64,000 nucleotides of DNA, from NCBI RefSeq assembly GCF_030684315.1, contig NC_081391.1, positions 13,059,342 to 13,123,341 on the forward strand. Direction: 5' to 3'. The stretch comes from Stegostoma tigrinum. Lineage: Eukaryota. Below, in pieces: positions 4,664 to 63,599 of the stretch (the first letter of the stretch is position 1; each line of letters begins with the position of its first letter). The position numbers and the translations under genes are program-made. A model generated the notes under the pieces. The model was not told the origin of the DNA. It saw only the letters and a list, made by a program, of their open reading frames with translations, and searched no databases.

Positions 4664-4850
4664 AGGTCAAAGGTCATTCAGCAATTCCATCATCCACCAG
4701 TTGTCAATTCTGATCGGTTTCTGGATCCAATTCCCATCCTGCACTGATTGGACGTGGCAACTGATCAATTGATTAACAAGAGTGATTGGCCATCACTGAT
4801 GATGTCATTTCCTGCTCAAAAAATGAGGGTCTTCTCCTGGAGTATAAATA
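4664..4850 (+). promoter_or_regulatory. Promoter of copy B
   Basis: DR1 AGGTCAAAGGTCA 4664-4676, ATTGG at 4747 and 4785, ACGTG, CAGTTG/CAACTG, TGATGTCA, TATAAAT 4843-4849 about 100 nt before the ATG; block conserved in all seven complete units. Confidence 0.8.
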
Positions 4851-4945: not shown

Positions 4946-7900
4946 ATGGCCTCCCAGATCAGTCAGAACTATCACCAGGATTGTGAAGCTGCTGTCAACA
5001 AGCAGATTAATGTGGAGCTCACTGCCTCCTATCTCTATCAGTCTTTGGTGAGTGCTGTCCCTGTGGGGTTGGAGTTACTTCTGTTATGAAGTGAACTGTT
5101 TTTTTTTAACAAACTAGATTAACACTCTTGTAGACTTGTTTGTTTTTTTTTGTATCTCTCTTAGCTATTCCTTGATTCAGGGTAAATGTGGTGACAATGG
5201 GATATGATACTGATATGCAGCAACTGAGGCCCCAGTTGTCTCAATGATATGTGGAGGGTGAAGCATCTTGTGATTTATCTTACAATTCCTTTTTAGGGCT
5301 GTGATTGCCTATAACTGGCTGTGGCTCTCCATAATTTTCTAAACTGCTGTCAAGTTTCAATGATCAGTGATAACCATTGGCTAACTACCTCTTTAAATCT
5401 GCCTTGATGCATCTGTTTTAATTTTGTGCATGTAAATAAACAAACATACTGATTTTGGGTATTTACAATAAGGTGTTGTAGTAATTTGACAAATCAGATT
5501 TTTTTAAGCTGAACTGAAGTCCTTGAGGTAAGACAAGCTGCTCCCTGCTTAAGTAGGTCTCCTATGTTTTGGCTTTCTGTACCCTATCATGAGGTGGGTT
5601 TGATCCATCACTTCACAACCTGTAGAAAGTTGACTTGTTATAGGTGCCTGCCCCCTGCCCCCCCTGAACCCAACCCCCAAAGGGGGCTGCTAGAACATGC
5701 TGAGGCTATTGACCCAGAAATGAATGTTATTCCTTTACCTTTTATCCAGAAAAAACAAACTGGCTCCTCCCACCAGGTGGTGGTGCCCCTGTGCCCTTCC
5801 AAGGGGTAGAATGTGTTCAGAAGGTGTTGAGGTCCCCTTGGTGAGTGCTGCAGGGGACCTGGTAGATAATGGACCCTGAAAGGAGGTGGTGAATGCAGTC
5901 CCCATGAAGTGGGCAGCTCTGTCCTGGATGGTGTCTACTTCTTGCATGTTGTAGCTCCCGTTCTCCAGACACATGGAGAATATTCATCTCTCTCTGGGCT
6001 TGTGCCTGTTGCAAGGAAGTCCTCTCTGGGGACATGAGGATCAAGTCCCTATAACTACCTTTTTTGGGAGGAGGGAATAGCTTTAAATAGTGAACCAATT
6101 GTTGGGTTTTAGTCACTGACCACTGTCTCAACTCAATAGGGAATCTTGTGTGATGATGATAAAATCCCCACTATTCTTCACCTTCTACAACTTAACTACC
6201 CAATTAAACCACTTTTTTAAACTTTTTGTTTGTATTTGAGGATTAAACTAACTTCTCACCAGGATTCTACCAAAGAACAACTTCTTCTTTTGATGTCAAT
6301 AGACTGTTCCTAATCAGCAGTAACTTGTTGGATTGTGAATCTCAGTTGAAAAGTGAGTGAAATGAGTGGGGAAAACAATAGTTTAGCCTCTTGGAATAAG
6401 CTAAATGGAGCTCTCAAGCTTTGAACAAGTCAATCTATAGGTCACACAGTCCTGCAGATACCATTAGGTCTCCTGAACATTTGATCTTGTTTCAGTTGTG
6501 AATTTTAATGCTTTGCTTTGCAAGCTTCTGGCAACCTGAGTGCATGGCATAAACAAATGTGATAAACTATTGCTGCAACAAGCCAAAGGCTGTCACTGGG
6601 CAGGCTCTCCTTTAGCCCCAAGATTCTCCTAATCGCCCTCATTCTCCTGCATACTGCAAACACCATCTCTTGTAGAGCTGCTTTATGTAAAACAAAAATA
6701 CAGTACATCTGATCCAATTGGGTGCAGAGGACCTGTACCTACTAGCTACATTATATTCATGTCCAGCATCTGCATGCTACTCCAGCACCAGGGGAGACAT
6801 GTAATGACTTGAAGTTGCCTGACCCTGTGCACATCCTGCATTCCAGCTCCTGGCACTTGTTTAAACCCTATTCAGTTACCACTTCCATCCAATTCTGGAG
6901 GCTAGATGGTAGAAAGGTGAATTCAGCTCTTCTATCTAGGCTGTGCCAGACCCACGCCCCCAAACAATTCAGCAGGGTTTACAAACCAAAACACTGAATT
7001 TGCATCTTACATGGAAGAAGCTAGGGTTGTTTGGTTTCCTCCAATTAAAGGAGCTGCTGGCTAACTTTGCAACACCATTAGTGAACATTGTAAGGTGTCA
7101 ACAATTTTCAGCTGATTGAATCATTAGTTTGCTTTAGACTAAACCAGTCCTCCAGTTCTGAGCATGAGAAATGGGGTCAATGATGTGTTTAATGGGCTTT
7201 AACTTTTGTTCTCCCTTCCAGATGTCCTACTATGACCGGGATGATGTGGCCCTCGCCCATGTCTCCCGGTTCTTCAAAGATCAGTCCCAGGAGAAGCAGG
7301 AACATGCAGAGAAGCTGCTGAAATTCCAGAATCAGCGTGGAGGCAGAGTCCTCCTCCAGGAAGTGAAGGTTGGAGTTGGGGAGGGGGGGTGCTGGTGTGG
7401 TGTGCAGGAATGGCAGCTCATGGTGTTTTCTGTTAATAGTGACAAGATTTTCATGTGGTAAAGGATGTGAAGGTTGGAGTTGGAGAAGGCAGGCAGTGGG
7501 GAGGAGATGTGAGAAATGGCTGCTTATGGTGTGGTTTCATGTCCTGAAAGAAAGTGAAAACTGTTTTGTTTGGCTCCCCTCCTTTTGACTAAAAGGAAAG
7601 AAATCTGAGAAACAAGCCTCTTGGCTCCCCTCCACCTGCTGCTTCCCCACCCCATGCTGACCTGATAAACACCAAACCACATTAATCCCATTTACTGCAC
7701 TTGGTCTACAGCCCCCATGGCATTGGTAGTTGTCTAGAAGCTGCTTAAATATTGCAGCAGTAGATGGCTCCCCCACTGCCCCACCCCCCCATATTATTTT
7801 TCCACTGGCCTCTTGGCAAAGGATTCCTCTAACCTGCTGACTCCTCACATCAGTGCCCTCTGGTCTTAATGTCTCTTTCTCCCCACCCCCTCATAGCAGA

Positions 7901-9587
7901 CACTCCCCATCTACTATCAAGACTCCACACTAATCAAATGCCATCACATAAACATCTCAACTGACTTCACTCTGGGGATTGGAGTGAGAGATCTAATCTC
8001 TCCTTTTAATGGATTTTTCAGCCTTGGGGCAACGTCCTGGTGACCCTTCCAGTGCCATTGTGGCTCCGGTCACCACACAGTATTCCACCTTTGCATGGCC
8101 AATGCTGCAAAGTTTGTGACAAGACTGGAGTCCCTGTACTGTGCCCCAAGAAATGGGGAAGGGCATTGTGGAAGCCAACTTCCCCATCCTGTCTACACTT
8201 ATGGATCCTTGAAATATCTCTAGTCTTGTTCTCTTGGTTCCTTTATTGTCAACATATTGCTGTCACTTCAATGAATTAAATAGTAGTGATGCTTTTGATC
8301 ATTCAGGTCAGTCCGAGATGAAGCCATAAGCACAAGTGGGACTTCAACCTGGGCCTATGCTCCAAACCTAGGGACAGTACCACTGCTTAACGAGCCCTGG
8401 GATTAAGTTGTGAATATCCTCCTTGGGATGCCATCAGATGGGCACTGACAATTCTGTGCAAACATAACTCTTATCCCCACTATGACCTGGTCGTGAATTG
8501 AGTCTCCTTTCGGAAGAAGCAATAAGGGCTAGGTGAAAGCAATTGTTACATAACTGATCTGTTCTTCCTAAGGACTTCAGGGATGGCAGTAGTTAGCACA
8601 ACTGCATCAGTGCTTGGGGCACAAGCTTAATTCTGGAGTTGACATGTTCACCACATCTCTACATAGGCTTCCTCCCACAGTCCAAAGATGTGCAGGGTAG
8701 GATAGGGCATGAAAAATGCAGGATTACATGGCTGGGGCTAGGACCAGGTTGGATGCTCTTCAGATGGTCATGAGTGGGCAGAATGGCCTGATGCATGCTG
8801 CAGGGATTTTGTTTGAGGCTTACCTGTCCTTCTTTGCATCCTCAGAAGCCAGAGAGGGATGAGTGGGGTAACAGTCTGCAGGCAATGCGGGTTGCCCTGG
8901 ATCTGGAGAAGAATGTGAACCAGAGTTTGCTGGATCTACACCAACTCTCCACAGCCCAGACTGACCCTCATGTAAGCTTCACCACTTCATTCTCATCACT
9001 GCGAGACCCTCAGGGTAACACTTCATTGGTTGGTCTGTGTGGATTGGAAATTCACAGGTGTGCACTGATCACTTTGGGTCCATGCTGCTGAGCAGTTGTT
9101 ACATGGTGATCAGTAATGAAGTGAAATGGGAGTTTGGAAGGCAATCCATTGGGAGTGATGAAGTGATATTGGCCATTGAATTCCCATTCTCACTTGGGAG
9201 CCTTACAGTGGAATGATCATTGTCCATCACCATCCAACTCAGCTCCACTTCACAAACAGCAAGATGGAGCAGCTGAAATCCTATTGTCCTCACTGGCACA
9301 GATTTTCCAGGTGTTAGCTAAATTTTCAGGGCTGTATGGAACTAGTATGGTAAAGCCTGTTTTTCAGTGGGAATTCTGAAATTGTCTTGGATAGTGTTAA
9401 TGCACTCAGTTGTCATATTCCTCTGTTGCAGCTGTGTGACTTCCTGGAGAATCACTATTTGGATGAGGAGGTGGAGATCATCAAGCAACTCGGGGACTAC
9501 ATCACCAACCTGAAGCGCCTGGGAGCCCCTGAGAATGGGATGGGAGAGTACCTGTTTGACAGGCTCTCCCTGGAGGACAGCAGTTAG
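4946..9587 (+). CDS. Ferritin subunit (L-like/hybrid), copy B, 176 aa, 4 exons
   Basis: Exons 4946-5047, 7222-7368, 8846-8971, 9432-9587, all phase-0 GT-AG introns at the canonical vertebrate ferritin positions. [29 protein letters not shown]...DRDDVAL...QNQRGGR...EYLFD; AATAAA at 9717-9722. Confidence 0.95.
5780..6060 (-). mobile_element. Degenerate LINE remnant in intron 1 (paralogues ~14570-14710, 23330-23610, 32180-32470, 40700-40840, 51940-52230, 59770-60050)
   Basis: Minus-strand [13 protein letters not shown] resembles the LINE ORF2 C-terminal LD.IQ.KA.RLIG motif. Confidence 0.55.
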
Positions 9588-11680
9588 TGTGGCCTGGAGT
9601 ACTGTCTGCTTGGTCTGAATGCATTCCCCACTTCACCCTGGACAACCTGTCTCCTTCCAAGGAGAAGGGAATTTTGTAGCAAAGAATGTAATGGCTATAC
9701 CAGCTAAATGGAAATGAATAAAATTATGTATTGATCTTGCTTATTGTCCATCATTCAGAGCTCTGAATACTTTGGGTGATAGCTCTTGCTTGAAGCCAGT
9801 TCTCTTCTGTCATTTGATTGGTCCAATTTCTAATTGGACTGGGCAACCCTTCACGGAATCGCTCACTATCCCCACATTAGAACGTAACTAGATGGAGTGT
9901 TTTTTGGTTATTCCTGTGGAAATTGAAGGTGCTTCTCCTCCAAATAGGATAAGGTTGGGATTTGTCAATTGTGGCATTGGCTTTCTTCTAGAGGACAATT
10001 AGTGCGCTTCTGGATATGGTGGGTTCAACTGTAGCTCAAAGAAATTGTCTTGCTCTGGTGACAGGAAGCTCCCACACCGTCCAAAGAGACTTCTCTACCC
10101 AGCCTGATAGAATTTGGGATAGTGGTGTTCAATTGCACATTTCCCTTGAAATCTCTTCCCCGCCTCAGCCATCCTGCGTACTCAATTATTGCCTGAATGA
10201 TGACAGCAACAAAAAGTGAAGACAGCCCTTTATCAACTGACCCAGCTGCCTAATCACAAACCTCTAAAGGTAGAGGCCCAGCAGGCTCTGATTTCAATCC
10301 AGCTGGCGGAAGCAGCAGAGGTGTGAAACAATCTCGACTGCCTGGTATATCTTTTTTTTTTCCCCATTGGGCCCTACCCTGACCAAAACACACTATATTC
10401 TCAGTATTGTTACTTTTGGTTTCACCATCCCAAACTGTGGCTGGAGCTCTTTCTCTTCCGCCTCTCCCCGCTTCTCTTTTTTTTCCACCCCCCCCCCCCC
10501 GACCCGACCTCTTCGTTCTTTTCTTTCCACGTGCCCCCACCAGCCTAAACATTCACCACAGCCCCTTCCCCTGGGAGTCAGCACAAGACATTCACCTGAA
10601 CTGTACTGTATTATAATGCAGGGCTTCATTGCCGCTTACAGCAGGATAACAGGGACCTGGGAATAACACAGCAATGCAGCTGGTTAAGTGCTGCTGTTTG
10701 ATTGGCTCTTGTTGCTAATGCCAGCATTGAGCGCACTAAGCTGCTCCCTTGGTTCCTCTGAGCTTCCCACATGGTGAACATTACTCCTGATGCAGGTTGA
10801 TTGGGTGAAATCACATTGAAGGAGCAAAGTGGCTCGGAGAGGAGACATGGAGATGCTGACTTTCCTTTACGGCTGCTTCCTTTATCTTTCAAGGTGTCAG
10901 AGATCATGGGTTCGTGAGGGGGCTCTCAGAGACATCCTGAGGATTGTTCCAGGGAGTTTTGTAGCGAGTGCACACTGCAGCCTTCATAGAGGTGGGGGGG
11001 GTGCTGCAGAGTCAAAAAGCACTCAACATATTTGTTCCACCACATAAAGCAATTTATTTTCGGTGAAAATAAGTCTTGGCTACAGTAACCCTCAAGTGCA
11101 GGAAGGGACCATTAGGCCCATTAAATCTGCATCGACCTTCTGAACAGCATCCTCCTTAGACCCAACCCCTTTGCCTTAACTCCACATTTCCCACGGCTAA
11201 TCGACCTAGTCTGCAGGCCCCTGCTCACGATCGACAATCTGTAAATCATTGGGCTGTGTGAGGAAACTCAAGCACCTGGAGGAAATCCACGCAGGCCATC
11301 ACCCATGGGTAGAACCGAACCTGGGTCCCTGGCACTGAGCCGCCAAAACATTCTAAAGTACCAAAGGAAAGGAATACACTGCGGCAAACTACGTCATGGG
11401 AATAGACTCTGCAGCCCAGCCCGAACTTGCAGACCAGGTTTTCATAAACTGTGTAGTGCCATTTGCCTACATTTGGCCCATCTTTCTCGAAACCGTTCCT
11501 TTCCATGTAAATCTCCAAATGTCACTTAAATGTTGTAATTCTATCCACCTCTACCACTTCCTCTAGCAGCTCGTTCCACACACGCACTACACTATGTGTG
11601 AAAATGTTGTCACTCATGCCCCTTTTAAATCTTGCCCCTCTCCCCTCAAACCAATACCCTCTAGTTTTGGACCCCCCCCA

Positions 11681-12923: not shown

Positions 12924-15900
12924 ATGGCCTCCCAGATCAGTCAGAACTTTCACGAGGATTGTGAAGCTGCTGTCAACAAGCAGATTAATGTGGAGCTCAC
13001 TGCCTCCTATCTCTATCAGTCTTTGGTGAGTGGTGTCTCTGTTGGGTGAAACATACTTCTGTTCTGTTGAAGTGAACTCTTCCCCTTGGATGTAATTAAG
13101 TTGTCTATCTTCTAGACTGAGTTTTGTGGCTCCTACCTCTTTCTCAATGCAGGATGAGTGTGATGTTACTGTAACAATAGTTTGGTGTCTAATGTTACTG
13201 TAACTTGGGTCCCAGTTGGTTGTCAGTGAGATGTGGAGGGTGGAGTGTTCTTGTAGTTACTTGCCTGTCCCATGATGGTGCTGTGACTGGTGGTAATTAT
13301 CGCTTCCTGTGACTTTGTTTGAAACTTGAGGGAACTAATTTAAAAATGAATTGGGACTCACCATTGTGGGAACGGAAGCACCATCAGCTAGTCACTGCTT
13401 TTCTTTTCCCTCCTGTATCCTTGTTTCTATTTGAATCTTGTGGGGATCTGAAGTAAACCTGCCAATTGATACTGAGAATCTTGGTTTCCTATTGCAATCA
13501 GCTTAGAATAGGCTTGTTCTAGCCCTGCAGAGCTGGGCCGAGAGGTGGCAAATGGAGTTTAATGCAGACAAGTGTGAGGTGATGCACTTTGGTAGGAGTA
13601 ACCGGAAGGCAAAGTACAGGGCTAATGGTAAGATTCTTGGTAGTGTAGATGAGCAGAGAGATCTGTGTCGATAGACACGGATTGTTGAAAGTTGCCACCC
13701 AGGTTGACAGGGCAATTAAGGCAGTGTTTGGTCTTTAATTAATAGAGGATTGAGTTCTGGAACCAAGAGGTTATGGTGAAGCTGTACAAAACTCTGGTGC
13801 AGTTGCACTTGGAGTATTGCGTACAGTTCTGGTCACTGCATTATAAGGATGTGAAGCTTTGCAAAGGGTGTAGAGGAGATCTACTAGGATGTTGCCTGGT
13901 ATGGAGGGAAGATCTTGTGAGGAAAGGCTGAGGGACTTGAGGCTCTCTTCATGAGAGAGAAGAAGGTTGAGAGGTGACTTAATTGAAACATATAAAATAA
14001 TCAGAGGGCTAGATAGGGTGGATAGGGAGAGCCTTTTTCCTAGATGGTGATGGTGAGCATGAGGTGGGGTAGCTTTAAATTGAGGGCTGATAAATATAGG
14101 ACAGATGTCAGAGGTAGTTTCTTTACTCAGTAAGGGAATGCAATGCTTTGCCTGTGACAGTAGTAGATTTGCCCACTTTAGGTACACTTAAGTCATCATT
14201 GGATAAGCAAATGGGCGTACATGGAATAGTGTAGGTTAGATGGGCTTGAGATCAGTATGACAAGTCGACACAACATCAAGGGCTGAAGGGCCTGCACTTT
14301 GCTGTTATGTTCTAGTTTCAGATTAAACTGGGTGAGGTTGTGACTCTTATCTGATTAAGCAGATCTCCATTTGAAATCTACTTTGCTTTTCTTCATACTC
14401 ATGAGGTGGGTGTGGGCTGTCTGTATGTCAAGTGTTGGAGCTTTTCAAAGGCACAGCACTGCCATGGGGCTGAGAATGGACGAAGGGTACTGACCCAGTG
14501 ACTATGGTAAAAAGTTTATGCCTGTTGTATTTGGCCTGATTCTAAACTAACTGGCCCCTCTTTGCCCAGGTGGGGTGCTTGTGCCCTTCCAAGGGGTAGA
14601 ATGTGTTTAGAAGGTGTTTACGTAACCTTAGTGTGTGTTTTAGGGTGCTCTCTGAGCTTGTCCCTGTCAGCAGGAAGTCTCCTCCTGATGAGGATCAAGC
14701 CCCTGTCAGCCCCACTTTGGGAGGGGGAACAGCTTTCATTGAGCTAGCAGTTGGGTTTTAATCACTGACCCACTGTCCCAACACACCTTGTAAGCATGTG
14801 CCAGGAATGAAATCCTTACTATTCTACATCTTCTAACTGCACATTTAAATCGCAAAGATAAATTGTGCTTGTGTTTGCATTTGAGAATTGAAGCAACTTT
14901 TTTCAGCAGGATTCGTAAGAATGTGCTTGTTACCGGCTGCTTCCAATAGCAGACCTGTTAAACCTCAATACATTGAATTGTGAACATCCTGGTTTAGAAA
15001 TCTACAGGACTTTGCCTGTTGGATTAAGTCAACAGTGGTTTTTCCAGGTTAATGAGGGATCTTGTCTAGAGAGTAGTTGATCTGCAGATCACTGTCATAT
15101 TTGTCATGTGATCAGTTTCTTTTGTCAGTCTTTCTTTCATGTGTAATGGTACAAGTTGCTAGCAGTCTGAGTCAGTGCAGCTGTTTTAGATGCAGCAGTA
15201 AACTGTTGCAGTAACAATCCAAAGGCTGTCCTTAGGCAGGCTTTCCTTGGCAGATTCTTGGAGCTAACCTCCTTCATTATCTCCTCATGCCTCCCCAGCC
15301 ACCCCAATACTGCAGTTCTTGTCAAACTAATAGATACAGTGCATCCAATTGCATTGATCCTGACTAAGCAGAAAATGTGCTCCTTCCTAGCTGTTAATTG
15401 CAGTGTCTAGGATCTGTTTTCTGGTCTTTGCCAAAGCAGCAATACAGTGCCCTGCAGCTGTTCTATTGGTGTAAATCCTGCGCTCCAGCCCTTGGCATTT
15501 CTTGAAACCCTATTCAATCAAAGATTTATCCCATTTCTAGTGGAGGTTAATCAGTAAAAACATCAATTCACACTTGTTCTCACCAAATGCTGTGCCAGAC
15601 CCTCCTGGGCAATTTGCCAGGAGTTTCAAACCAAAATAAAACACATGGTATTTACAGCTTACCTGGAGGAAGCTGGGATTGTTTTGATTTTTCCAATTCA
15701 ACAGCAACTGCTCAAAACTGGGTTCTGAATTGTTAATGCATCAGGTACTTAACAGCTTATTGTCAGTTTGACTTTTTGAGAATGCTCAAGTAGCCCTGTA
15801 GTTCTGAACTGAAATTGGCCCACGACTTGTTAATGGACTTTACCTTGTTCTCCCTTCCAGATGTCCTACTTTGACCGGGACGATGTTGCCCTTCCCCATT

Positions 15901-18130
15901 TTTCCCAGTTCTTCAAACATGAGTCTCAGGAGAAGCGGGAACATGCAGAGAAGCTGCTGAAATTCCCGAATCAGCGTGGAGGCAGAGTCTTCCTCCAGGA
16001 TGTGAAGGTTGGAGTTGGGTGGGGAATGGGATGGTCATGGCTGCTCTTGTGGTGTGGTTTCAAGTCAGTGACAAGGTTTTCATTTGAGTCAAAACTTTGT
16101 TCAACCTGTTTGATCTCCTTTTTGAATCCAGTGTAGAAAGAAGCCCTTTCGCCCACCATGTCTATGCTGACCGCACAAACACTAAACAACATTAATCCCA
16201 CTTACCTGCCCTTGGTCCACAGGCCACTGTCCTGGCACTAAGTACTTGTCCAGCTGGACCTTAAACTGATCTGGAGTAGCTGACTCCACCACCATTCAAA
16301 CATTTTAGGTGGGTCATCTCATATTTCTAACAACCCCTCGGAGGAGGGTGAAGAGAAAGTTTCCTCCAATCCCCTCTAACCTGCTTACTCCACAAACCTG
16401 GTTTCTCTCTGGTCTTGGTGTCTGCCATGGGGAAGACATTCCATCAACTGGCCACTCTCTATTCTTCAATAATTACATCAGGTTACTCCCTCAGCTGTTC
16501 CTGCTCCACAGAAAATCCCAGCCTATCTAACATCCAATCAATGGATCTTGGGCAACAGCCTGGGGAACCTCACCAGCTTCCCCCTGCAGTGCCATCCTGT
16601 CCAGGTGACTGGTGAGGCCAAAGAGGGAATAATGTGGTGACTAGAAGAACAAATTGTAACAAGACTGGTCCCCTTCCTGTTCCACCCCACCAAACTAATA
16701 GAGGTTGCTTGCCCTCTGTCACTGTTACACCCTGTTGACCTTGTCTGAACTTTGAGGGATCTATGGTTGTGGGCCTTTCTTAACTGTTAGCAGCACAACA
16801 CACTTTGCAAACACCTCGCTGTCCCTTGGATGAATTAAATAGCCGTGATGTTTCTGATCATCCTGCTCAGGCATGTATGAAGCCACCAGCACAAGTGGTA
16901 CTTGAACCTTGGCCTTGTCAGCCAGAGACAGGGGCACTACCACTGTACCATGACAGCATTTAGGATTCACTCGTGAATATCCTCGCAATTCCATCAGATG
17001 GACCCTGATGCAAATCTTGTCATTATCCCCCACAATGACCTGTTATTCACCTTCCTCCTTCAGATCAAGGACCGACAGGCAAGGTGAAAGCAATTCTGAA
17101 GGAACTGTTCTTCAGCTGTGCTCCAGGGCTGCCTCAGGGGCTAGCAGTGTTCTCAGTGCTAGGGACACAGGTCTGGATCTGGCCTCTGGTGAGGGACTGG
17201 TGTTGACATGTCCTCCCCATGTCTGCGTTGGTGTCCTCAGAGTATAAGAGGATTGGCCATCTGAAATGCAGGGTTACAGGAATAGGGTGGGAGAAGGACG
17301 AGTTGGGATCCTCTTCAGAGCAGTTACAGACTGATCCACGTTGTAGAGATTCTGAAGCTTAACTGTCCTTCTTTTCCCTCCTCCAGAAGCCAGAGAGGGA
17401 TGAGTGGGGTAACAGCCTGCAGGCAATGCAGGTTGCCCTGGATCTGGAGAAGAATGTGAACCAGAGTTTGCTGGATCTACACCAAGTCGCCACTGCCCAG
17501 ACTGACCCTCATGTCAGCTTCACCTCCTCATTGACTTCACTGCTAGGCCCTCAGGGCAACACCTTCATTGGTTGGTCTTTTGTGGATTAGAAAATCAGTT
17601 AGACTTTGTTTTTGTGCAGATGACATGGATCACTTCAGATCCATAGTGATTACAAAATCATTGCTGAGCAGTTGAGTCCAAGTATGTATTTTAACTTGTA
17701 AACCTATGGGGAGGACTGAGGGGATATTGGTCACTGAATTCTCATTCAGAACCACTGCAGTGGAATGACTTTTGTCCATCAAGTCAACTCTGCTCCAGTA
17801 AATAAACAGCAAGATGAAGCAGCTAAAAAGCAGTTGTCCTCTTTGCACAATTTCTCCAGGCGTTGGCTCTAGTCATCCCTGACAATCTCCCTCCATATGC
17901 ACGTTTTTCAGTGGGGATTCTGAAGTTGTCTTGGATAGTGTTAATGTACCAAGTGTCATATTCCTCTGTTGCAGCTGTGTGACTTCCTGGAGACTCACTA
18001 TTTGGATGAGGAGGTGGAGATCATCAAGCAACTTGGGGACTACATCACCAACCTGAAGCGCCTGGGAGCCCCTGAGAATGGGATGGGAGAGTACCTGTTT
18101 GACAGGCTCTCCCTGGAGGACAGCAGTTAG
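12924..18130 (+). CDS. Ferritin subunit, copy C, 176 aa, 4 exons
   Basis: Exons 12924-13025, 15861-16007, 17387-17512, 17975-18130; open frame. Carries Q>P in KFPNQRGG and a TATA>GATA change; AATAAA at 18258-18263. Confidence 0.92.
13526..14314 (+). mobile_element. CR1 LINE 3' fragment in intron 1 of C
   Basis: Matches 21285-22085 (CTGCAGAGCTGGGC...GGAGTATTG...TTATGTTCTA). Confidence 0.88.
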
Positions 18131-22564: not shown

Positions 22565-25500
22565 ATGGCCTCCCAGATCAGTCAGAACTATCACCAGGAT
22601 TGTGAAGCTGCTGTCAACAAGCAGATTAATGTGGAGCTCACTGCCTCCTATCTCTATCAGTCTTTGGTGAGTGCTGTCTCTCGGGGTTAAACATATCAAT
22701 CTGTTCTGTTGAAGTAAATTCTTTGCCTGGCCTCTAGTGAAGCTGACAATCTAGTAGATTGAGGTTTTGTGGCTCCTACCTAAATATCAGTTCAGGATAG
22801 AGGTGGTGTTACTATCACGATGGTGTAGGATACTGATGTATGTTAACTCAGGTCCCAGTTGGCCTTCAGTGGTATCTGGAGGGTAAAAGCCTCTTGCTTT
22901 TGTTTTCTTTCTGACACAAGTTTCCTGACTTCATTTGCCTGATCTCTGTGGTGGTCCTAAACAAACATGCTGATTTTTTTTAACACTGACTATAACAATA
23001 ACTTCCCTGTTGCAGTGGCCCTTGTTAGTCTGAACAAACCTGAGGCTAGTCTGTGACTGGTATCTATTTTATGTGGATCTCCTTCATTGAGGCTGACTTG
23101 GCTTTACTTGTATTTATTCAAGAGGTGGGTGTGGCCTATCCCGTCCCCACTGAGAGTTGATCTGCTGTGTGTGAGAAATGTTGGATCCCCTCTCTGCCCC
23201 CTCTCCTCCCCACCCCACCCCACACTGGGGCTGCGGGAATGTGCTGAGGCTATGAGCCCAGTGACATTGAAGAAATGGAGGTTGTTCCCATATCATTTAG
23301 CTTGACCTAAAACAAAATGTCCCCTCTATCCCGGTGGTGATGTGACTGTGCCCTTCCAAAGAGTAGAATGTGCTTGGAAGGTATGTGTTGAAGTAACCTT
23401 GGTGAGTGCTGCAGGGGACCTGGTAGGTAATGGACCGTGAAAGGAGGTGGTGAATGCAGTCCCCATGAAGTGGGCTGCCCTGTCCTGGATGGTGTCTGCT
23501 TCTTGCATGTTGTAGTTCCCCTTCTACAGACACACGGGGAATATTCATCTCTCTCTGGGCTTGTGCCTATTGGAAGGAAGTTGTCTTGTAATGAGGACTA
23601 AGTCCCTATAAGCCTCACTTGGGAGGTGGGACCGCTTTATTGGTGAGCCAGTTGTTGGGGTTTAATCACTGTGTCCCAACTCTATTGGCACATGTTTCCC
23701 AAGGATAAAATCCCGACTATCTTCTGCCACAACTTGTAACTACCCACTGAAACCACAGATATTTGCTTGCCTGACTGGTTTTTGGATTTGAGGATTAAAG
23801 TAACTTTACAGGAGTCCTTCCCCAGAATGTAATTCTTAGCTGATGCTTCCAATAGCGAGCATTAGCTCTTAAACCCTAACATCGAATTGTGAACATGACA
23901 GTTGAGATATGAGTCACATGGGCTGAAAACCTACAGGATTTTTTGCCTGTTTGGGTAAAGTCAGGGCAAGTGTTTTTCCAGGTTACTGTTTTCACTAGTG
24001 ACGTTATCTACAGGCCACTAATAGTTGACATTTGATCATTTGTCTTGCAATTTGTTTCAGTCATGTGACTTGGTGCAAGTTTTTGACAGCCTGAGTTTGC
24101 ACTATTTAGGCAGAGCAATAACCCACTGCTGCAACGATCCAAAGGCTGTTACTGGGCAGGCTTTCCTCGGCATTATCTTAGTGCCAAACTCCATACTGGA
24201 GACAGCACACCTTTGTAGAGTTCATGTGTACACTTACATCCCAATCTCATTGATCCTGGGTTTGCAGAAAACATGCTCCCTACTAGTCGTTGACTACAGC
24301 AGGGTTTCAACATCTTTTTTCCAGTTTTCCCCAAAGGCAAAACATAGTGCCTTGCGTCTTGTAGTTGAGAACTGGAATGGGGAGTGAGCCAGTGATGTCT
24401 GATGTAATTTTAACTTGATCTTCCAGATGTCCTACTTTGACCGGGACGATGTTGCCCTCGCCCATTTCTCCCGGTTCTTCAAAGATCAGTCCCAGGAGAA
24501 GCGGGAACATGTAGAAAAGCTGCTGAAATTCCAGAATCAGCGTGGAGGCCGAGTCCTCCTCCAGGATGTGAAGGTTGGGGTTGGGTGGTGGGGGAGTGCA
24601 GGGGGGAATGGCTGCTCTTGCGGTGTCATCTCCAGTGACAAGATTTTCAGATCCTGAGCGAGTGTGAGAAGTTCTTTTGCTTGGCTTCCCTGTTTGCTCT
24701 CATCCATCAGCATTTATGCAAGCCCTCTGGTCCACCAGGCCTATGCTGATGCAGCAAAGACCGAACTGTACTCACCCTGTACTTGGTCCAGGCCCTACTA
24801 TACCCTAGTGTTTAGCACTCGCCCAGCTAGTCCTTTTAAACAGTGCTGCAGTAGCCGTTTCCAGCACTTTGTTCTTCCGTTCCCCAACACACCCACCAAA
24901 TTTCCTCCAATCCCCTCTATCCTGCTTCCTCAAACCTGTGCCCTCTGGTCTTAGTGTCTGCCATGGGGAAGACATTTTCCCCATCTACTGTCCAGACTTC
25001 CTTGTCTTCCATCAAACAACCACCTCAGCCTCACCTGCTTAAAGGAAAACCCCCAGCCCATCCAATCTCTCTCCTCAATGGATTTTCTGTCTTGGGGAAA
25101 CAACCTGGGGACCCTCACCAGCACCCCCTGCAGTACCATCCTGTCCTTCTGACCAGTGAGCCAACGATAGAATGCAGCAGAGACCGGAAGAACAATTTTC
25201 ATAAAATGTGTTCAAAGGACTTGTCCCTGTGCTGTTCCTCACAACCCTGCCCCAAACTAACACATGTTACTTGGCCTATGTCCCCTTTCACACACAGTTT
25301 GCCTTGTGTGAGCATTGAGGGATCGATGACCCTGTGTTTATTGTAAGCACATTACTGCCCCCCACAATGAATTCAAGTAATGATGGTTCTGACCATGCTG
25401 CTCGGGCATGTATGAGGCCACAAGCACAAGTGAGACTTGAACCTCAGCCTTGTCAACCGAAGCTTGGGACACGACCGCTACTTTCCCCACAGCCCTTGGG

Positions 25501-26715
25501 ATTCACTCCTGAATATCCTTTTTAAGACTCCAGCAGATGGACACTGGTGCAAATGACTAATCTGGTACATATTTATTCCCTGTGGTACAAGGATATGTTC
25601 CTGAACTTCCGGCTTCAGGTCAAGGATAAATGGGGCAAGGTGAAAGGAGTCACCAAGTAGCTAATGTTTTCTTTATCTGGACTTCAGGGATGGCACAGTG
25701 GCTCAGTGGTTGGCACTGTTGACTCAGTGCCAGGGGCACCAGTTTGGTTCTGGCCTGTGACGAGAATTTAAACGTTATCCCAAAGCATGGCTTCCCCACA
25801 CAGTAGAAAAGAGGATTGGCAACTTGAAATGCAGGTTACACGAACAGGGTGGGAATGGGACCAGATGGGATGCTCTTCAGCAGTTATGGTCTCAATGGGG
25901 TGAATGGCCAGCTCCCATGCTGCAGGGATTCTGTTTCTGAAGCTTACCTGTCCTTCTCTCCATCCCCAGAAGCCAGAGAGGGATGACTGGGGTAACAGTC
26001 TGCAGGCAATGCAGGTTGCCCTGGATCTGGAAAAGAATGTGAACCAGAGTTTGCTGGATCTACACCAACTCGCCACAGCACAGACTGACCCTCATGTAAG
26101 CCTCACCTCCTCATTCACATCACTGCTAGACTCTCAGGGTAACGTTTCATTGGTTGGTCTGTGTGGATTGGAAATTCACTGAAGTAACACTTTCCATCCA
26201 TTACTTTCCTGAACTATTGTCACATTGATCACTTGGGATCATACTGATTACAATGAGGGATAAGGGGAATTTGATCTATAATCTAGTGGAAGTGCTGAAA
26301 TGACGTTGGCCACTGAGTTCTTCATTAGCATCATTGCAGTGGAATGATCATTGTCCATCACAATCCAACTCAGCTCCATTTCACAAACAGCAAGATGGAG
26401 CAGCTGACATGTTGTCCTCACTGGCACAAATTCTCCAGGTGTTAGCTCGCTTTTCAGGGCTGTCCAGAGCTAGTCATGGCTAAGTCTGTCTTGCAGTGGG
26501 AATTCTGAAATTGTCTTGGATAGTGTTAATGTACCAAGTGTCATATTCCTCTGCTGCAGCTGTGTGACTTCCTGGAGACCCACTATTTGGATGAGGAGGT
26601 GAGGATCATCAAGCAACTCGGGGACTACATCACCAACCTGAAGCGCCTGGGAACCCCTGAGAATGGGATGGGAGAGTACCTGTTTGACAGGCTCTCCCTG
26701 GAGGACAGCAGTTAG
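22565..26715 (+). CDS. Ferritin subunit, copy D, 176 aa, 4 exons
   Basis: Exons 22565-22666, 24427-24573, 25970-26095, 26560-26715; GT-AG; AATAAA at 26843-26848. Confidence 0.95.
25688..25925 (+). mobile_element. tRNA-derived SINE remnant at the end of intron 2 (paralogues ~678-900, 8580-8800, 17135-17340, 34848-35030, 43085-43290, 54582-54770, 62586-62810)
   Basis: GGGATGGCACAGTGGCTCAGTGGTTGGCACTG (A-box-like head), followed by CCCACAG...AAATGCAGG...GGGTGAATGGCC, typical of shark SINEs. Confidence 0.65.
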
Positions 26716-31349: not shown

Positions 31350-34300
31350 ATGGCCTCTCAGATTAGTCAGAACTATCACCAGGATTGTGAAGCTGCTGTC
31401 AACAAGCAGATTAATGTGGAGCTCACTGCCTCCTATCTCTGTCAGTCTTTGGTGAGTTTTGTCTTGATGGAGTTAAAATTAAATCTATTCTGCAAAAATA
31501 AGCTGATCCTCTTGTTTCTAATTAACTTCATAGTCTTGTAGATTTGAGGTGTTTAAGTTTTTTTTACCTTAAAAATCATTTTGGGATAAATGTAATGCCC
31601 TTTGGTAACAATGGATTTTGATATTGATGTACAGTATCTAATTCACCAGCCTGGATTGAGTGATAGATGGACGGCAAATTGTTCAGTGAATTATTTTACA
31701 ATTTACTGCCAGGCCTTTGCCTGGTGGTAACTGTCATTTTCCTCCCCAGAATTGACCAACCTTTACTAAAATTAGATGTAATGGTGTTGGGAGTTGTATG
31801 CACCCCTTGGCTAGTCATCCTGTAACATTTTAATATACCTTGATCACACTTACTTTGTGCTCTGATCCTAAATACACATCATGCCAGTTTCCATTCTGTG
31901 ATGGAGAATGATGGCAGTGACTGGCTTCTCTGAGCATATGCACTTGTAACTTGCATTGAGGAGGCCTCAGAAGTGGACTAGTTGGCTTTCTGCATTCTCA
32001 GTTCATGAATGGACTGTTAGTGGTCAGGAAGTCACTTGTTGTCCATTCCTCCAATACATCAATGCTCTCCTGTGAGTGCATGCACAGGGTGTCTGGAATA
32101 ACCTGAGGTCTTCACTTCACCAAAAAAGGTGAGGAATTGGAGTTTCAAATTCCCATGGTATGGGAAATGGTGCCTTTCTCCAGGGAGCACTGTGCCTATG
32201 GCCTCTCAAAATGGCAGGCTATAATGGTTTGGAAATGTTGAAGCAGCTTTTGAAGGCTGCTAGGTACCTGGTAGATAGTGGACACTAGGAGTGCATTCAC
32301 TCACTCCCTTCAATGAGGTGGGCTGCTCTGTCCTGCATAGTGTCTGCTTTGTGCATGTTGCAGCTCCACTTCTTGGGGGGAAAAAGGGAGAATATTCATC
32401 CCTCGTGGGGCTTATCACTGAGAAGCATTCTCTTCCCACACTTTCAGGATGAAATCCCTGTACCCTTCCCTTTAGCAGGTGGGAACAGCTATCACCAATA
32501 AGCCTGTTGGGTCCTAACTGTCAGTGGTGTCCCATATCAATTGGGCAGCTTGTGCCCAAACTACCCACTATTGTACATCTGTAAGATGCAGCTACCCAAG
32601 TAAAGTCAGAGAAAGTTGCATAACTGTTTTTAGACAAAAGAATCTTCTCAGCCTGATCAGTAGGAACTAGATAACCTGCTCTAACAAGGTGTAGAGCTGG
32701 ATGAACACAGCAGGCCAAGCAGCATCGGGGGAGCAGGGAAGCTGATGTTTTGGGCCTGGACCCTTGAGAAATGGGGAGGGGAAGAGGCCCCTGAAATAGC
32801 AAGGGGTGGGGAGGTGGATGGATGAGGGATAAAGAAACAGGTGGTGAGGAGACTCCGGTCTGAGGTAAGGATGGAGCCAATAAAGTCAAGTGAGTTGGGT
32901 AGGCCTGTCCAGGGAGGTGGGGATGGGGTTTGAGGTTGGGGGGGGCGGGGAGATGGGGTGGGGTGGTGTGGGGAAGTAGGTGGGAGGAAGGATGGACAAG
33001 TTAGGGAGGTGGGGACTAGCTGGGCTGTGATTGGGGGAAGGGAGATCTTTCAGCTTAAGTTCTTACTGATACCATTGGGCTGCAGGGTTCCCAAGCAGAA
33101 TACAAGGTGCTGTTCCTGCAACCTTTGGGTGGCATTGGAGGCCCAGAATGAACATCAACTGTCCCCTCCTGCTCCTCTGGAGGGGAAGTAGTTTGTGACT
33201 GGGAGGTGCAGCTGCTGATCACGAGCCCAGCATAGGCACTCCACAAAGTGGTGTCAAGCCTCTGCTCGGCTTTCCTGATGTAGAGGAGGCCACGTTAGGA
33301 ACAGTGGGTACAGTATACCTCACTGCAGATGTGTAGGTCCACTTCTTCTTGATGTGGAAGGTCTTGGGGCCTGGGATGAGGGGAGGTGTAGCACAATCTG
33401 TGTGGCAGGAAAAAAGCCCTGGCTAGTGGAATGGACAAGGGAATCAGTGGTCTCTCCAGAAGGCAGCTAAGGTTGGGGAGGTAAAACATGTCTTTGTCAG
33501 ATTGTAGATTGTATAAGTGCCAGAGGATGATGCACTGGATCCTGTCATTTGAGGTGGTACTGAAGGATGAGAGGATTCTGTTTTGGTTGTGTGTGGGATA
33601 AGATGCAAGACCGGTTGTGTTTTTCTTCCACTAAAGGGAAGTTACGCTCCCTCGGAAAACGAGGACATCTGGGATGCCCAGGAGTACAATGCCTCCCCTC
33701 GGGGCTGGAGGTGAAGGAATTGGATTAGGGGATGGCGTTTTCCTTCCACAGGAAGGTGGGTGAGGTGTAATCTAGGTCACTGTAGGAGTCAGTAGGTTTG
33801 AAATAGATCAAAGATTGATCGACAAACTGAAGGTTGAGGTAGAAGGTTCTAATGAATTAGAGGAACCGTTCAAGCTCCTTGTGGGATGTAATGGAGGAAG
33901 ATGTGGAGTTTATGGCCCATCTCCCTGTAGAAGGATTGTTCCACATATCCTAACAGAAGCAGGCACAGCCTGGGCCCATGCAGGTACCTATGGCCACCCC
34001 CTTCCTCTGTAGGAGGTGGGAGGAATTGAAGGAGAAGTTAGGGGTGAGGATGAGTTGGCTAGTGGACAAGCTTGTTGGTGAATGGGGACCAGTCAGACCT
34101 GCAGGATGAGAGAAGCAGAGGGCCTTCGGCTATCTCCATGGGGAATGGATGAGGTTGGAGGCTGTGGGTGGGAGGTCATCTCCAGTGAAGTTGTACATGG
34201 ACTAGGAGATGGTTTGGTGGTCAGGGGTGGAGTCATGATCAAGGGCGGGGTGGTAGGAGGTATCGGCTGCTCTTCCACACAAGTATATGTGGCACTCCAG

Positions 34301-35922
34301 CTCCTGGCATTTCCTTAAACCCTGTTCAGTCACAAACTCCATCCAATTCTGATGGTGCTTAGAGTGGAAATGTTCTTCTCTCTACAGACAAGAACAGGCC
34401 TGGGCACCTCAGGTTTTTGTCAAGGAATTTTAAAAAGTGTTTGCCTGGTTACCAGGAGGAGGCGAGGGTTGTTTTTGATGATCCTTGAACTGGAGCCACT
34501 GGCTCATTGGACAATGGTTCTCATCCACCTTGATGTATTCAAAAAAGTCATGTTTATTGACTTCTCAATTTGATTGAAGGCTAAACCAGTCATGTCTGGC
34601 ACCAATTGCATGATGCTTAATGGATATAACTTGTTTTCTCCCAGATGTCCTACTTTGACCAGGACGATGTTGCCCTCCCCCATGTCTCCCAGTTCTTCAA
34701 AGATCAGTCCCAGGAGAAGCAGGAACATGCAGAGAAGCTGCTGAAATTCCAGAATCAGCATGGAGGCAGTCCTCCTCCAGGATGTGAAGGTTGGTGTTGG
34801 GTTTTTGGGGTGGGGGGAGTTGGGTGGTAGAGAGTGGCTGCTCCTCAGGGATGGCACAGTGACTCAGTGTTTCCCATGCATGCCTCAGTGCCAGGGATCC
34901 AAGTTTGGTTCTTGGTTCTAGGCTCCAGTGAATGACTGGAGTTGACTTATTCTTGCCATGTCCACATTGGCTTCACGGTTCAATGACGTGTGGGTTAGAA
35001 GCATTGCCATTTAAAATGCAGGGTTACAGGAATAAGAAGGGACTTGTAGCGACGAATGTAGTGGCTGTACCTGCCGATTGGGGATGAATAAAATGATGTC
35101 GTGACCTTGGTTATTGTCACCATGACTCAAATAGCCTGTTCCCATGCTGCAGAGATTGTGAAGCTTACCTGTCCTCTCTCCATCCGCAGAAGCCTGAGAG
35201 GGATGAGTGGGGTAACAGCCTGCAGGCAATGCAGGTCGCCCTGGATCTGGAGAAGAATGTGAACCAGAGTTGGCTGGATAGGCACCTAGTCGCCACAGCC
35301 CAGACTGACCCTCATGTGAGCCTTCCCACCACCTCATTCTGATCACTGCTAGGCCCTCAGGGCAACACCTCATTGGTCTTTTGTAGATTAAAATTCACTG
35401 GGATACTTGGATCACAATATCATATCTGAACAGTATGTTCATTTAATCAACATCAAAGCAGCTCAGCTATGAGCTGAAATGGGAATTTGGATTCACCACC
35501 AGGAGTGATGTTGGCCAATGAATTCACTTTCAGGGCCACTTGCATTAGAATGATCATCGTCTGTCACAGTTCAGCTCAGCTCCATTTCACAAACAAGAAG
35601 GTGCATCTGGAACGTTACTGTCCTCACTGGCGCAACATCTCCTAGATCTCAGTGGCTTTTCCAGCTGTCTAGAGCTAGTTATGGTGGGGTCTGTTTCGCA
35701 GTGGGAATTCTGAAATTTTCCTAGATCATGCAAATGTACCAAGTTGCCATAATTCCTCTGTTGCAGCTGTGTGACTTCCTGGAGACTCACTATTTGGATG
35801 AGGAGGTGGCGATCATCAAGCAACTTGGGGACGACATCACCAACCTGAAGCGCCTGGGAGCCCCTGAGAATGGGATGGGAGAGTACCTGTTTGACAGGCT
35901 CTCCCTGGAGGACAGCAGTTAG
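31350..35922 (+). pseudogene. Ferritin pseudogene, copy E
   Basis: Exons 31350-31451, 34645-34789, 35190-35315, 35767-35922. Exon 2 is 145 nt instead of 147 (GGCAGAGTC>GGCAGTC near 34768, a frameshift). Also Y34C, R>Q in DRDD, damaged exon 3 (QSWLDRHL), lost TATA and mutated DR1. Confidence 0.9.
32682..34270 (-). mobile_element. Old, degenerate Penelope-like remnant in intron 1 of E
   Basis: Colinear similarity to 44715-46800 (GCTGGATGAACACAGCAGGCCAAGCAGCATC, GGTTCCCAAGC, CCCATGCAGGTACC) with many deletions. Confidence 0.8.
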
Positions 35923-39078: not shown

Positions 39079-42000
39079 ATGGCCTCCCAGATCAGTCAGA
39101 ACTATCACCAGGATTGTGAAGCTGCTGTCAACAAGCAGATTAATGTGGAGCTCACTGCCTCTTATCTCTATCAGTCTTTGGTGAGTGGAGTCTCTGTTGG
39201 GTGAAACATACTTCTGTTCTGTTGAAGTGAACTCTTCCCCTTGGATGTAATTAAGTTGTCTATCTTATAGACTGAGTTTTGTGGTTCTTACCCCTTTCTC
39301 AATGCAGGATGAGTGTGATGTCAGTATAACAATAGTTTGGTGTGTAATGTTACTGTAACTTGGGTCCCAGTTGGTTGTCAGTGAGATGTGGAGGGTGGAG
39401 TGTTCTTGTAGTTACTTGCCTGTCCCATGATGGTGCTGTGACTGGTGGTAATTATCGCTTCCTGTGACTGTTTGAAACTTGAGGGAACTAATTTAAAAAT
39501 GAATTGGGACTAACCATTGTGGGATTTGAAGCATCATCAGCTAGTCACTGCTTTTCTTTTCCCTCCTGTATCCTTGTTTCTATTTGAATTTTGTGGGGAT
39601 CTGAAGTAAACCTGCCAATTGATACTGAGAATCTTGGTTTCCTATTGCAATCAGCTTAGAATAGGCTTGTTCTAGCCCTGCAGAGCTGGGCCGAGAGGTG
39701 GCAAATGGAGTTTAATGCAGACAAGTGAAGTGATGCTCTTTGGTAGGAGTAACCGGAAGGCAAAGTACAGTGCTAATGGTAAGATTCTTGGTAGTGTAGT
39801 TGAGCAGAGAGATCTTGGTGTCCACGTACACAGATCCTTGAAAGTTGCCACCCAGGTTGACAGGGCTGTTAAGGCAGTGTTTTGGCTTTTATTAAGAGAG
39901 GGATTGAATTCTAGAACCAAGAGGTTATGGTGAAGCTGTACAAAACTCTGGTGTGGTAGCACTTGGAGTATTGTGTACAGTTCTGGTTGCTGCATTATAA
40001 GGATGTGGAAGCTTTGGATAGGGTGCAGAGGAGATCTACTAGGATGTTGCCTGGTATGGAGGGAAGGCCTTATGAGGCAAGGCTGAGGTACTTGAGGCTG
40101 TTTTCATTGGAGAGAAGAAGGTTGAGAGGTGACTCAATTGAAAGATATAAAATAATCAGAGGGGTAGATAGGGAGAGCCTTTTCTGTGGATGGTGATGGC
40201 GAGCATGAGGGGGCATAGCTTTAAATTGAGGGGTGATAGATATAGGACAGATGTCAGAGTTAGTTTCTTTACTTGGTAGCAAGGGAATGGAATGCTTTGC
40301 CTGCGACACTAGTAGATTTGCTAATTTTAGGTACACTTAAGTCGTCATTTGACTTTAGCATATGGACTTACATGGAATAGTGTAGGTTAGATGGGCTTGA
40401 TCGGTATGACAAGTTGGTGCAACATGAAGGGCCTGTACTGTGCTGTTATGTTTGAAGTTCAGATCAAACTGGGTGAGGTTGTGACTGGTATCTGATTAAG
40501 CAGATCTACTTTGCTTTTTTTCACACTGATGGGGTGGGTGTGGGCTGTCTGTATGTCAAGTGTTGGAGCTTTTCAAAGGCACAGCACTGCCATGGGGCTG
40601 AGAATGTGCTGAGGGTACTGACCCAGTGACTATGGAAAGAAGCTTATCCCTGTTGTGTTTGGCCTGACTCTAAACTAACTGGCCCCTTTTTCCCCAGGTG
40701 GTGGAGTGCCTGTGCCCTTCCAAGGGGTAGAATGTGTTTAGAAGGTGTTAGAAGTAACCTTAGTGAGTGTTGCAGGGTGCTGTCTGGGCTCGTGCCTGTC
40801 AGCAGGAAGTCCTGTCATGATGAGGATCAAGTCCCTGTCAGCCCCACTTTGGGAGGTGGGAACGGCTTTCATTGAGCCAGCAGTTGGGTTTCAATCGCTG
40901 ACCCATTGTCCTAACACACCTTGTAAGCATGTGCCAGGAATGAAATCCCTACCATTCTACATCTTCCAAGTGCCCATTTAAATGACAATGATAAATTGTG
41001 CTTGGGTGTTTGCATTTGAGAATTAAAGCAACTTTTTTCAGCAGGATTCGTAAGAATGTGATTCTAAATGGCTGCTTCCAATAGCAGACCTGTTAAACCT
41101 GAATATGTTGAATTGTGAACATCCTAGTTTAGAAATCTACAGGACTTTGCCTGTTGGATTAAGTCAACAGTGGTTTTTCCAGGTTATTGTTTTAATGACT
41201 GCTCTCCTCTGGAGAGTAGTTGATCTGCAGGTCACTGTCATATTTGTCATGTGATCAGTTTGTTTCTTTCATGGGTAATGGTACAAGTTCCCAACAGTCT
41301 GAGTCAGTACAGCTGTTTTAGATGCAACAATCCAAAGGCTGTCCCTTGGCAGGCTTTCCTTTGGACTTTTCTGGCCTTTGTCAAAGGAGCAATACAGTGC
41401 CCTGCAGCTGTTCTATTGGTGCACATCCTGCACTCCAGCTCCTGGCATTTCTTGAAACCCTATTCAATCACTAATTTATCCCGTTTCTGGTGGAGGTTAA
41501 TCAGTAAAAACATCAATTCACATTTGTTCTCACCAAATGCTGTGCTAGACCCCCTTGAGCAATTTACCAGGAGTTTCAAACCAAAATAAAACACATGGTA
41601 TTTACAGCTTATCTAGAGGAAGCTGGGATTGTTTTGATTTTTTTCCGATTCAACAGCAACTGTTCAAAACTGGGTTCTGAATTGTTAATGCATCAGGTAC
41701 TGAACAGCTTACTGTCAGTTTGACTTTTTTAGAATGCTCAAGTAGCCCTATAGTTCTGAACTGAAATTGGACCATGACTTGTTAATGGGCTTTACCTTGT
41801 TCTCCCTTCAAGATGTCCTACTTTGACCGGGACGATGTTGCCCTTCCCCATTTTTCCCGGTTCTTCAAACATCAGTCCCAGGAGAAGCAGGAACATGCAG
41901 AGAAGCTGCTGAAATTCCAGAATCAGCGTGGAGGCGGAGTCCTCCTGCAGGATGTGAAGGTTGGAGTTGGTTGGGCTGGGGGATGGGATGGTCATGGCTG

Positions 42001-58937: not shown

Positions 58938-63599
<4,662 letters not shown>

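Follow-up and report, generated by a model that had tools for sequence, protein, structure and literature searches.

A tandem array of K62 ferritin genes

The stretch of DNA analysed here, 64,000 nucleotides of the Stegostoma tigrinum genome (contig NC_081391.1, positions 13,059,342 to 13,123,341; hereafter the window), carries eight tandem four-exon ferritin genes. They lie head to tail on the forward strand at a spacing of 7.9-11.6 kb; six are intact, one is frameshifted (copy 5) and one is partial (copy 1). The intact copies have open reading frames of 176 amino acids and GT/AG introns and are 91-96% identical to each other. The closest named proteins come from carpet sharks, with identities of up to 98% among the matches listed. 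The genes are part of a much larger array, which we call the K62 array after the lysine at position 62 of the ferroxidase site. We suggest that this array encodes an L-like partner subunit with a likely disabled ferroxidase site.

The K62 array spans 1.42 Mb of the same contig (C50:12,987,143-14,403,987) and includes the window. A codon pattern for HYLDEEV yielded 144 matches genome-wide but only one for the reversed control; thus the pattern is not a chance product. A first codon pattern for K62 had been too loose (239 matches against 143 for the control). Nearly all scored exon-2 matches (139/150) fall within the array. For a census we sampled about 60% of the array (865 kb) and counted 104 gene units. 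Of these, 66 are intact, 28 have all four exons and yet are broken, 2 have a defective splice site and 8 are partial. Scaling up gives an assembly-dependent estimate of about 165 units in total. Scans of the flanks revealed no marker genes adjoining the array, only repeats. A stretch of about 10 kb rich in CA/TG microsatellites (C50:12.974-12.984 Mb) lies directly left of the first gene.

The K62 array is under purifying selection. Among 65 distinct intact coding sequences the ratio of nonsynonymous to synonymous polymorphism (pN/pS) is 0.29 (codon-bootstrap 95% interval 0.20-0.45; uncorrected, and from pairs that are not independent), or 0.48 when distinct variants are counted, and 93 of the 176 codons are invariant. 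One could imagine a degenerate paralogue with little function which was merely amplified by unequal crossing-over, as about a third of the sampled units are broken and the copies, 91-96% identical in the window, are of recent date. However, the selection signal already speaks against this view, and so do the presence of the clade in at least four shark orders and the spliced transcripts (see below), so that we regard it as very improbable.

Residues of the ferroxidase site

In copy 2, exon 1 (4946-5047) starts with the ATG and contains the codons for E27 (5015-5017) and Y34 (5036-5038). Exon 2 (7222-7368) encodes helix B with K62 (codon AAG, 7294-7296) and H65, exon 3 (8846-8971) encodes E107 and H118, and exon 4 (9432-9587) encodes C130, D131, E134 and E141 (codon GAG, 9468-9470) and ends with the stop codon. 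A preliminary description of the window had assigned the altered site to the interval 7222-9587. This is indeed exons 2-4 of copy 2, but exon 1 with E27 and Y34 was left out.

The motifs given in that description are borne out. Exon 2 reads (Q/E)SQEK(Q/R)EH in 7/7 window copies and exon 4 reads YLDEEV in 8/8, where the human H chain (4oyn) has QSHEEREH and YLNEQV. All six intact copies have E27, Y34, E61, K62, E64, H65, E107 and E141 as well as the three-fold channel residues H118, C130, D131 and E134. The claim that E27, Y34, H65, E107 and the channel residues are kept therefore holds for the intact copies, but copy 5 has C34, and the INVE motif is VNVE in copy 7, though E27 itself is preserved there. 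The acidic cluster of L chains is only partial, as had been stated: the window copies have D or H57, Q60, E61 and E64, and the sampled array has the same residues except that Q60 is found in most copies only.

The picture is the same across the array. Gap-free exons of the sample have K62 in 82/82, E141 in 97/97, E27 in 99/99, E107 in 95/95 and H65 in 79/82 cases. In the 66 intact copies E27, E107, E141 and the four channel residues are invariant and H65 is present in 64; two copies carry H65R and five have a changed Y137. The residues retained at the site (E27, Y34, H65, E107) are ancestral states.

Thus the copies do not have the E62 and Q141 of an H chain, and no 5′ iron-responsive element (IRE) as in H-chain genes was found. 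They also lack the combination that marks an M chain, namely a complete ferroxidase site together with nucleation carboxylates and an IRE. With mammalian FTL they have K62, E107 and E141 in common but neither the loss of E27 and H65 nor E57/E60/E61/E64. All general features of an animal cytosolic ferritin are present: the four-helix bundle with the E helix, the four-exon gene and the three-fold channel.

Two further features had been proposed as distinctive and are not. The C-terminus DRLSL was called L-like, yet Leu173 is also found in 33/136 ferritins bearing E62, including the shark E62 array described below, and we dropped DRLSL as a marker of L chains. Likewise, the hybrid set E27/Y34/K62/H65/E107 is no unique feature, since two paralogues of lizards, one of a marsupial and a protein of the E-array type from the sharpnose sevengill shark (Heptranchias) have it too.

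The remaining window copies have the same orientation as copy 2. Copy 1 is represented by exons 3-4 (945-1658) with a GC donor; its exon 2 lies just beyond the window edge, and an exon 1 was not found in the genome. Copies 3 (12924-18130), 4 (22565-26715), 6 (39079-44082), 7 (51147-55651) and 8 (58938-63599) have intact open reading frames. Copy 5 (31350-35922) is a pseudogene in which a 2-nt deletion frameshifts exon 2. A polyadenylation signal AATAAA follows the stop codon by 125-129 nt in 8/8 copies (9717-9722 in copy 2).

A second array and its chromosomal context

A second ferritin array, whose site is intact (E62/Q141), begins at C50:19.99 Mb, 5.6 Mb away from the K62 array. The E62 pattern gave 216 matches against 4 for the control, and none of them lies within the K62 array. 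Many copies of this E62 array carry W63 (EEWEH), and several shark array homologues have N62, K27 or R65, which suggests that the site may be eroding repeatedly in the E62 array too. A divergent ferritin gene with introns (C50:21591671-21601906, forward strand) is arranged tail to tail with the IRE-bearing gene found at the end of the E62 array.

RUVBL2 maps to C50:18.55 Mb, 4 Mb from the K62 array, and BAX to 26.43 Mb, 12 Mb from it; no glycogen synthase gene was found on this contig. As BAX, GYS1 and RUVBL2 are neighbours of human FTL, C50 resembles the chromosome of the M/L locus. The likeness does not set the K62 array apart; the E62 array and the IRE-bearing gene are found on C50 as well. 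On another contig, a glycogen synthase gene (C20:18.98-19.04 Mb) lies at a distance of about 0.9 Mb from the IRE-bearing H-like ferritin gene (C20:18.05 Mb). This pair echoes the FTL-GYS1 linkage of mammals and is possibly an ancient paralogous linkage.

Promoter, iron-responsive elements and transcripts

All 7/7 copies with exon 1 share a conserved promoter block (4740-4850 in copy 2, forward strand) with two inverted CCAAT boxes, an E-box and a TATA box (TATAAA, 4843-4848) about 100 nt from the ATG. The E-box, about 190 nt 5′ of the ATG, is CAGCTG in 5/7 copies and CAACTG in 2/7. The oocyte factor FIGLA uses an E-box of the sequence CAGCTG, which would fit expression in oocytes.

An IRE was not detected in the window by Rfam. 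A genome-wide search in which 82 candidates were scored found just two, both 5′ of single ferritin genes with an intact site: the H-like gene on C20 and an M-like gene at C50:21.61 Mb, these labels being inferred from resemblance and chromosome. Text resembling an IRE loop occurs 5′ of 6/100 first exons; a re-check of 78 starts recovered one, which does not fold as an IRE.

Contigs of the public sequencing run X7, for which library type and tissue are not on record, join exons 1-2, 2-3 and 3-4 of copy 2 at the predicted sites. The same run contains spliced contigs of the E62 array. Run X1 holds one spliced contig of the K62 type. The contig depths in these runs, none of which is recorded as RNA, cannot rank the genes, and the missing cover of E62-array exons in X1 is not evidence. 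Between positions 5046 and 9431 of the window, run X7 also shows exon-skipping joints (1-3, 1-4 and 2-4) and a single joint that runs backwards, from exon 3 to exon 1. Such joints may stem from genuine minor isoforms, from read-through or from errors in assembling copies that are nearly identical. Finally, C11 holds an intronless fragment of the K62/E141 type which joins exons 3 and 4 (C11:69204237-69204395), and two decayed copies of the E62-array type without introns (45.82 and 78.64 Mb). These intronless copies point to transcription in the germ line.

Could the protein be a bulk component of the egg, such as a storage protein, scaffold or carrier cage, for which iron handling is incidental? 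The very high copy number, the lack of an IRE, the broken site and the partial nucleation cluster would all fit, and a ferroxidase-dead germ-line ferritin, FTHL17, has been reported to play no part in storing iron (PMC5312872). However, all 66 intact copies keep the iron-entry residues H118/C130/D131/E134, and run X7 also holds transcripts of the catalytic array. We consider a mainly non-iron role quite unlikely.

Origin of K62 and E141

The shark K62 proteins form a single clade (99.6/99) with members from Heptranchias, Mustelus, Cetorhinus, Carcharodon and the carpet sharks, and thus from at least four shark orders. No member from a ray, chimaera, sawshark, horn shark or catshark was present among the matches listed (top 66-120). 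K62 goes back at least to the ancestor which the sevengill, mackerel, ground and carpet sharks share.

E141 is younger. The K62 proteins outside the carpet sharks all have Q141 (7/7), whereas E141 is found in 19/19 readable carpet-shark members. Most simply, Q141E would be a single late gain within the carpet sharks, convergent with the tetrapod L chains. Three of the seven K62/Q141 proteins have in addition lost H65 (R or Y), and so this lineage tolerates the loss of the site.

The fixation of E141 raises another possibility. Bacterioferritins have a bridging glutamate at the position equivalent to 141. The shark site might therefore be re-wired, with E141 replacing E62 as carboxylate ligand and K62 swinging aside, so that E27, H65, E107 and E141 slowly oxidise iron. 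The invariance of E27, E107 and E141 in 66/66 intact copies (H65 in 64/66) and the gain of E141 after K62 are in line with such a site. Nevertheless, the other sharks keep K62 with Q141, three of them without H65, and in the array itself H65R (2/66) and changes of Y137 (5/66) are found in intact copies. Moreover, mammalian L has K62, E107 and E141 and no activity. We therefore judge a re-wired site, the main rival to the reading given below, to be unlikely.

How K62 itself arose is less clear-cut. For the LG+G4 and mixture-model trees we left out 5/42 rows, four of them as redundant and one for its very long branch, and masked columns 27, 62, 65 and 141. In the best LG+G4 tree the K62 clade is sister to the shark E62 array with weak support (66.8/75). 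The approximately unbiased (AU) test rejects mammalian L alone as the partner of K62 (p=0.0135, LG+G4), but not a clade which also includes the oocyte L chains of lizards and frogs (p=0.40). Under the mixture model the tree with K62 and tetrapod L has p=0.605 and a log-likelihood 0.77 above the free tree. A quick tree of 79 rows without oocyte L places K62 as sister to the shark E62 array (Shimodaira-Hasegawa-like approximate likelihood ratio 88) and mammalian L beside reptile E62 genes; with oocyte L added, the K62, E62-array and L clades fall into one polytomous group, and these topologies are unstable. The K62 proteins share three columns with tetrapod L (8, 37, 62) and two clear ones with the E62 array (22, 109); three are common to all three groups, and this count favours neither origin. 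One protein from a chimaera joins the E62 array (93.6/96). The K62 lineage is thus probably older than the chimaera-shark split, which makes a deep orthology plausible.

These results bear on the preliminary description in two ways. Its view of an amplified subunit that is neither canonical H, M nor L is supported, as regards H, M and mammalian L, by the rejection of the clade with mammalian L and by the separate IRE-bearing genes with intact sites. The independent origin of an L-type chain, which it had also raised, fares well for the Q141E step, which is independent of tetrapod L, but not for the K62 step: placement as an ordinary FTL orthologue is refuted for a clade exclusive to mammalian FTL and not for the broad tetrapod L clade. 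For K62, orthology with tetrapod L and convergence appear about evenly matched on present trees. E62K needs one base change and has recurred across lineages; a sponge ferritin also carries K62 (PMC8395497). It is conceivable, at somewhat less than even odds, that the K62 genes of sharks represent the tetrapod L lineage in cartilaginous fishes and that living sharks keep the single steps by which a catalytic subunit became non-catalytic, from E62/Q141 (the E62 array) over K62/Q141 to K62/E141 in carpet sharks, with E27 and mostly also H65 in place throughout. If true, L-type ferritin would be as old as the jawed vertebrates, and its first form would have been an amplified gene of the egg. The idea of an M/L locus and of M/L orthology is already in print (PMC4117605).

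Proposed function

The predicted fold of a close relative (P0012) is that of a normal ferritin subunit (pLDDT 80, TM-score 0.84-0.85 to frog M and human H), and the match in the ESM Atlas is annotated only as ferritin. E62 bridges the two irons at the ferroxidase site. In L chains K62 forms a salt bridge with E107; our literature search for support of this bridge gave no usable paper. In human H the double mutation E62K+H65G abolishes ferroxidase activity (PMC6929972).

We suggest, with a probability of about 60%, that the K62 array encodes an L-like partner with a likely disabled ferroxidase site, which would be made in bulk and co-assemble with the catalytic subunits of the E62 array, probably in oocytes. 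K62 would pair with E107, and perhaps with E141, and occupy the site much like the lysine of mammalian L. Fe(II) could still enter through the three-fold channel, which is intact. As only E61 and E64 of the acidic cluster are present, the subunit would more likely contribute stability and capacity to the cage than a strong, mammalian-style nucleation. Since an IRE is lacking, output would be set by gene dosage and the shared promoter and not by the iron of the cell. The result would be an iron-insensitive, dosage-driven store, most likely a maternal one.

Several observations weigh against this proposal. The inactive human mutant also carries H65G, whereas the shark copies keep H65 and E27. 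That E27 never varies is not required of a dead site, although this point is weak with 93/176 codons invariant. Given the incomplete nucleation cluster, a mammalian-style L role of the K62 subunit is doubtful. In the sample 38/104 units are broken or partial, a few of them only cut by the sample edges, which indicates heavy birth-and-death turnover. Finally, ovary expression is known from another shark, whose cluster may or may not be of the K62 type, and the tissue of run X7 is not recorded.

The expansion of shark ferritins and their expression in the ovary are already published. Sahm et al. (10.1101/2024.09.09.611499) described large tandem shark ferritin clusters with 155 'FTL' and 179 'FTH1' copies and ovary-specific expression, the latter seen for the main cluster of the Greenland shark, and Yang et al. 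2026 (PMC13214024) reported 59 'FTH1b' copies in the shark expansion. The parts of these two texts that could be searched contain no active-site residue analysis, K62 subfamily, E141 step or IRE loss; the word 'ferroxidase' occurs 0 times in Yang et al. and 'iron' 0 times in Sahm et al. The five supplements of Yang et al. hold no FTL/FTH1a text. The literature searched, which covered few subscription papers, has no description of a shark K62 subfamily.

The published shark-genome papers treat the copies as extra ferritin capacity and tie them to ferroptosis and longevity. About 165 of the roughly 380 array copies in the genome do not have the bridging ligand E62; copy number alone therefore overstates the catalytic capacity. 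The natural series E62/Q141, K62/Q141 and K62/E141 with E27 and H65 kept would make it possible to test directly which single changes turn a catalyst into a partner subunit, and the array bears on the timing of the origin of L-type ferritin. E62K has recurred in lizards, marsupials and sharks, which suggests that evolution has arrived more than once at the disarming of a germ-line ferritin paralogue as a solution.

Comparison with known ferritins

The M ferritins of fish and amphibians have the same fold, and the shark K62 proteins are about 70% identical to frog M. M ferritin, however, is catalytic with E62/Q141 and has an IRE, whereas the K62 array has K62/E141 and no IRE was found.

Some M-like paralogues of amniotes (Elgaria P0184, Hemicordylus P0360 and the marsupial 'FTHL17-like' P0211) have E27, Y34, K62, H65 and E107 as in the shark but keep Q141, unlike the window copies with E141. 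They are nested among tetrapod E62 genes (97.5/97 with a turtle E62 protein), which indicates a separate origin of their K62. The P0211 cluster comprises eleven marsupial proteins annotated as 'FTHL17' or 'heavy chain A/B-like', with E27/K62/H65 in its representative. The cluster may represent an unstudied M-locus gene and not true FTHL17.

The lizard and frog proteins annotated as 'ferritin light chain, oocyte isoform-like' (P0216, P0305, P0329) group with mammalian L (98/91). K62 is present in the lizards and E141 in P0216 and P0329. The lizard proteins have S/L27 and Q65 against E27 and H65 in the shark K62 array. The frog protein keeps E27 like the shark; its model is without exon 2, so that residue 62 is not visible, and the searches yielded no oocyte L of a frog in full length. 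A search of solved structures with lizard oocyte L at a strict threshold gave no matches.

Mammalian FTL is a single IRE-regulated gene, unlike the shark array, which has no IRE. At about 60-64% identity, FTL and the K62 array agree in K62, E107, E141, Y34 and Leu173. They differ in that FTL has Y/H/L27, G65 and the full E57/E60/E61/E64 cluster, whereas the shark array combines E27 and H65 with a partial cluster.

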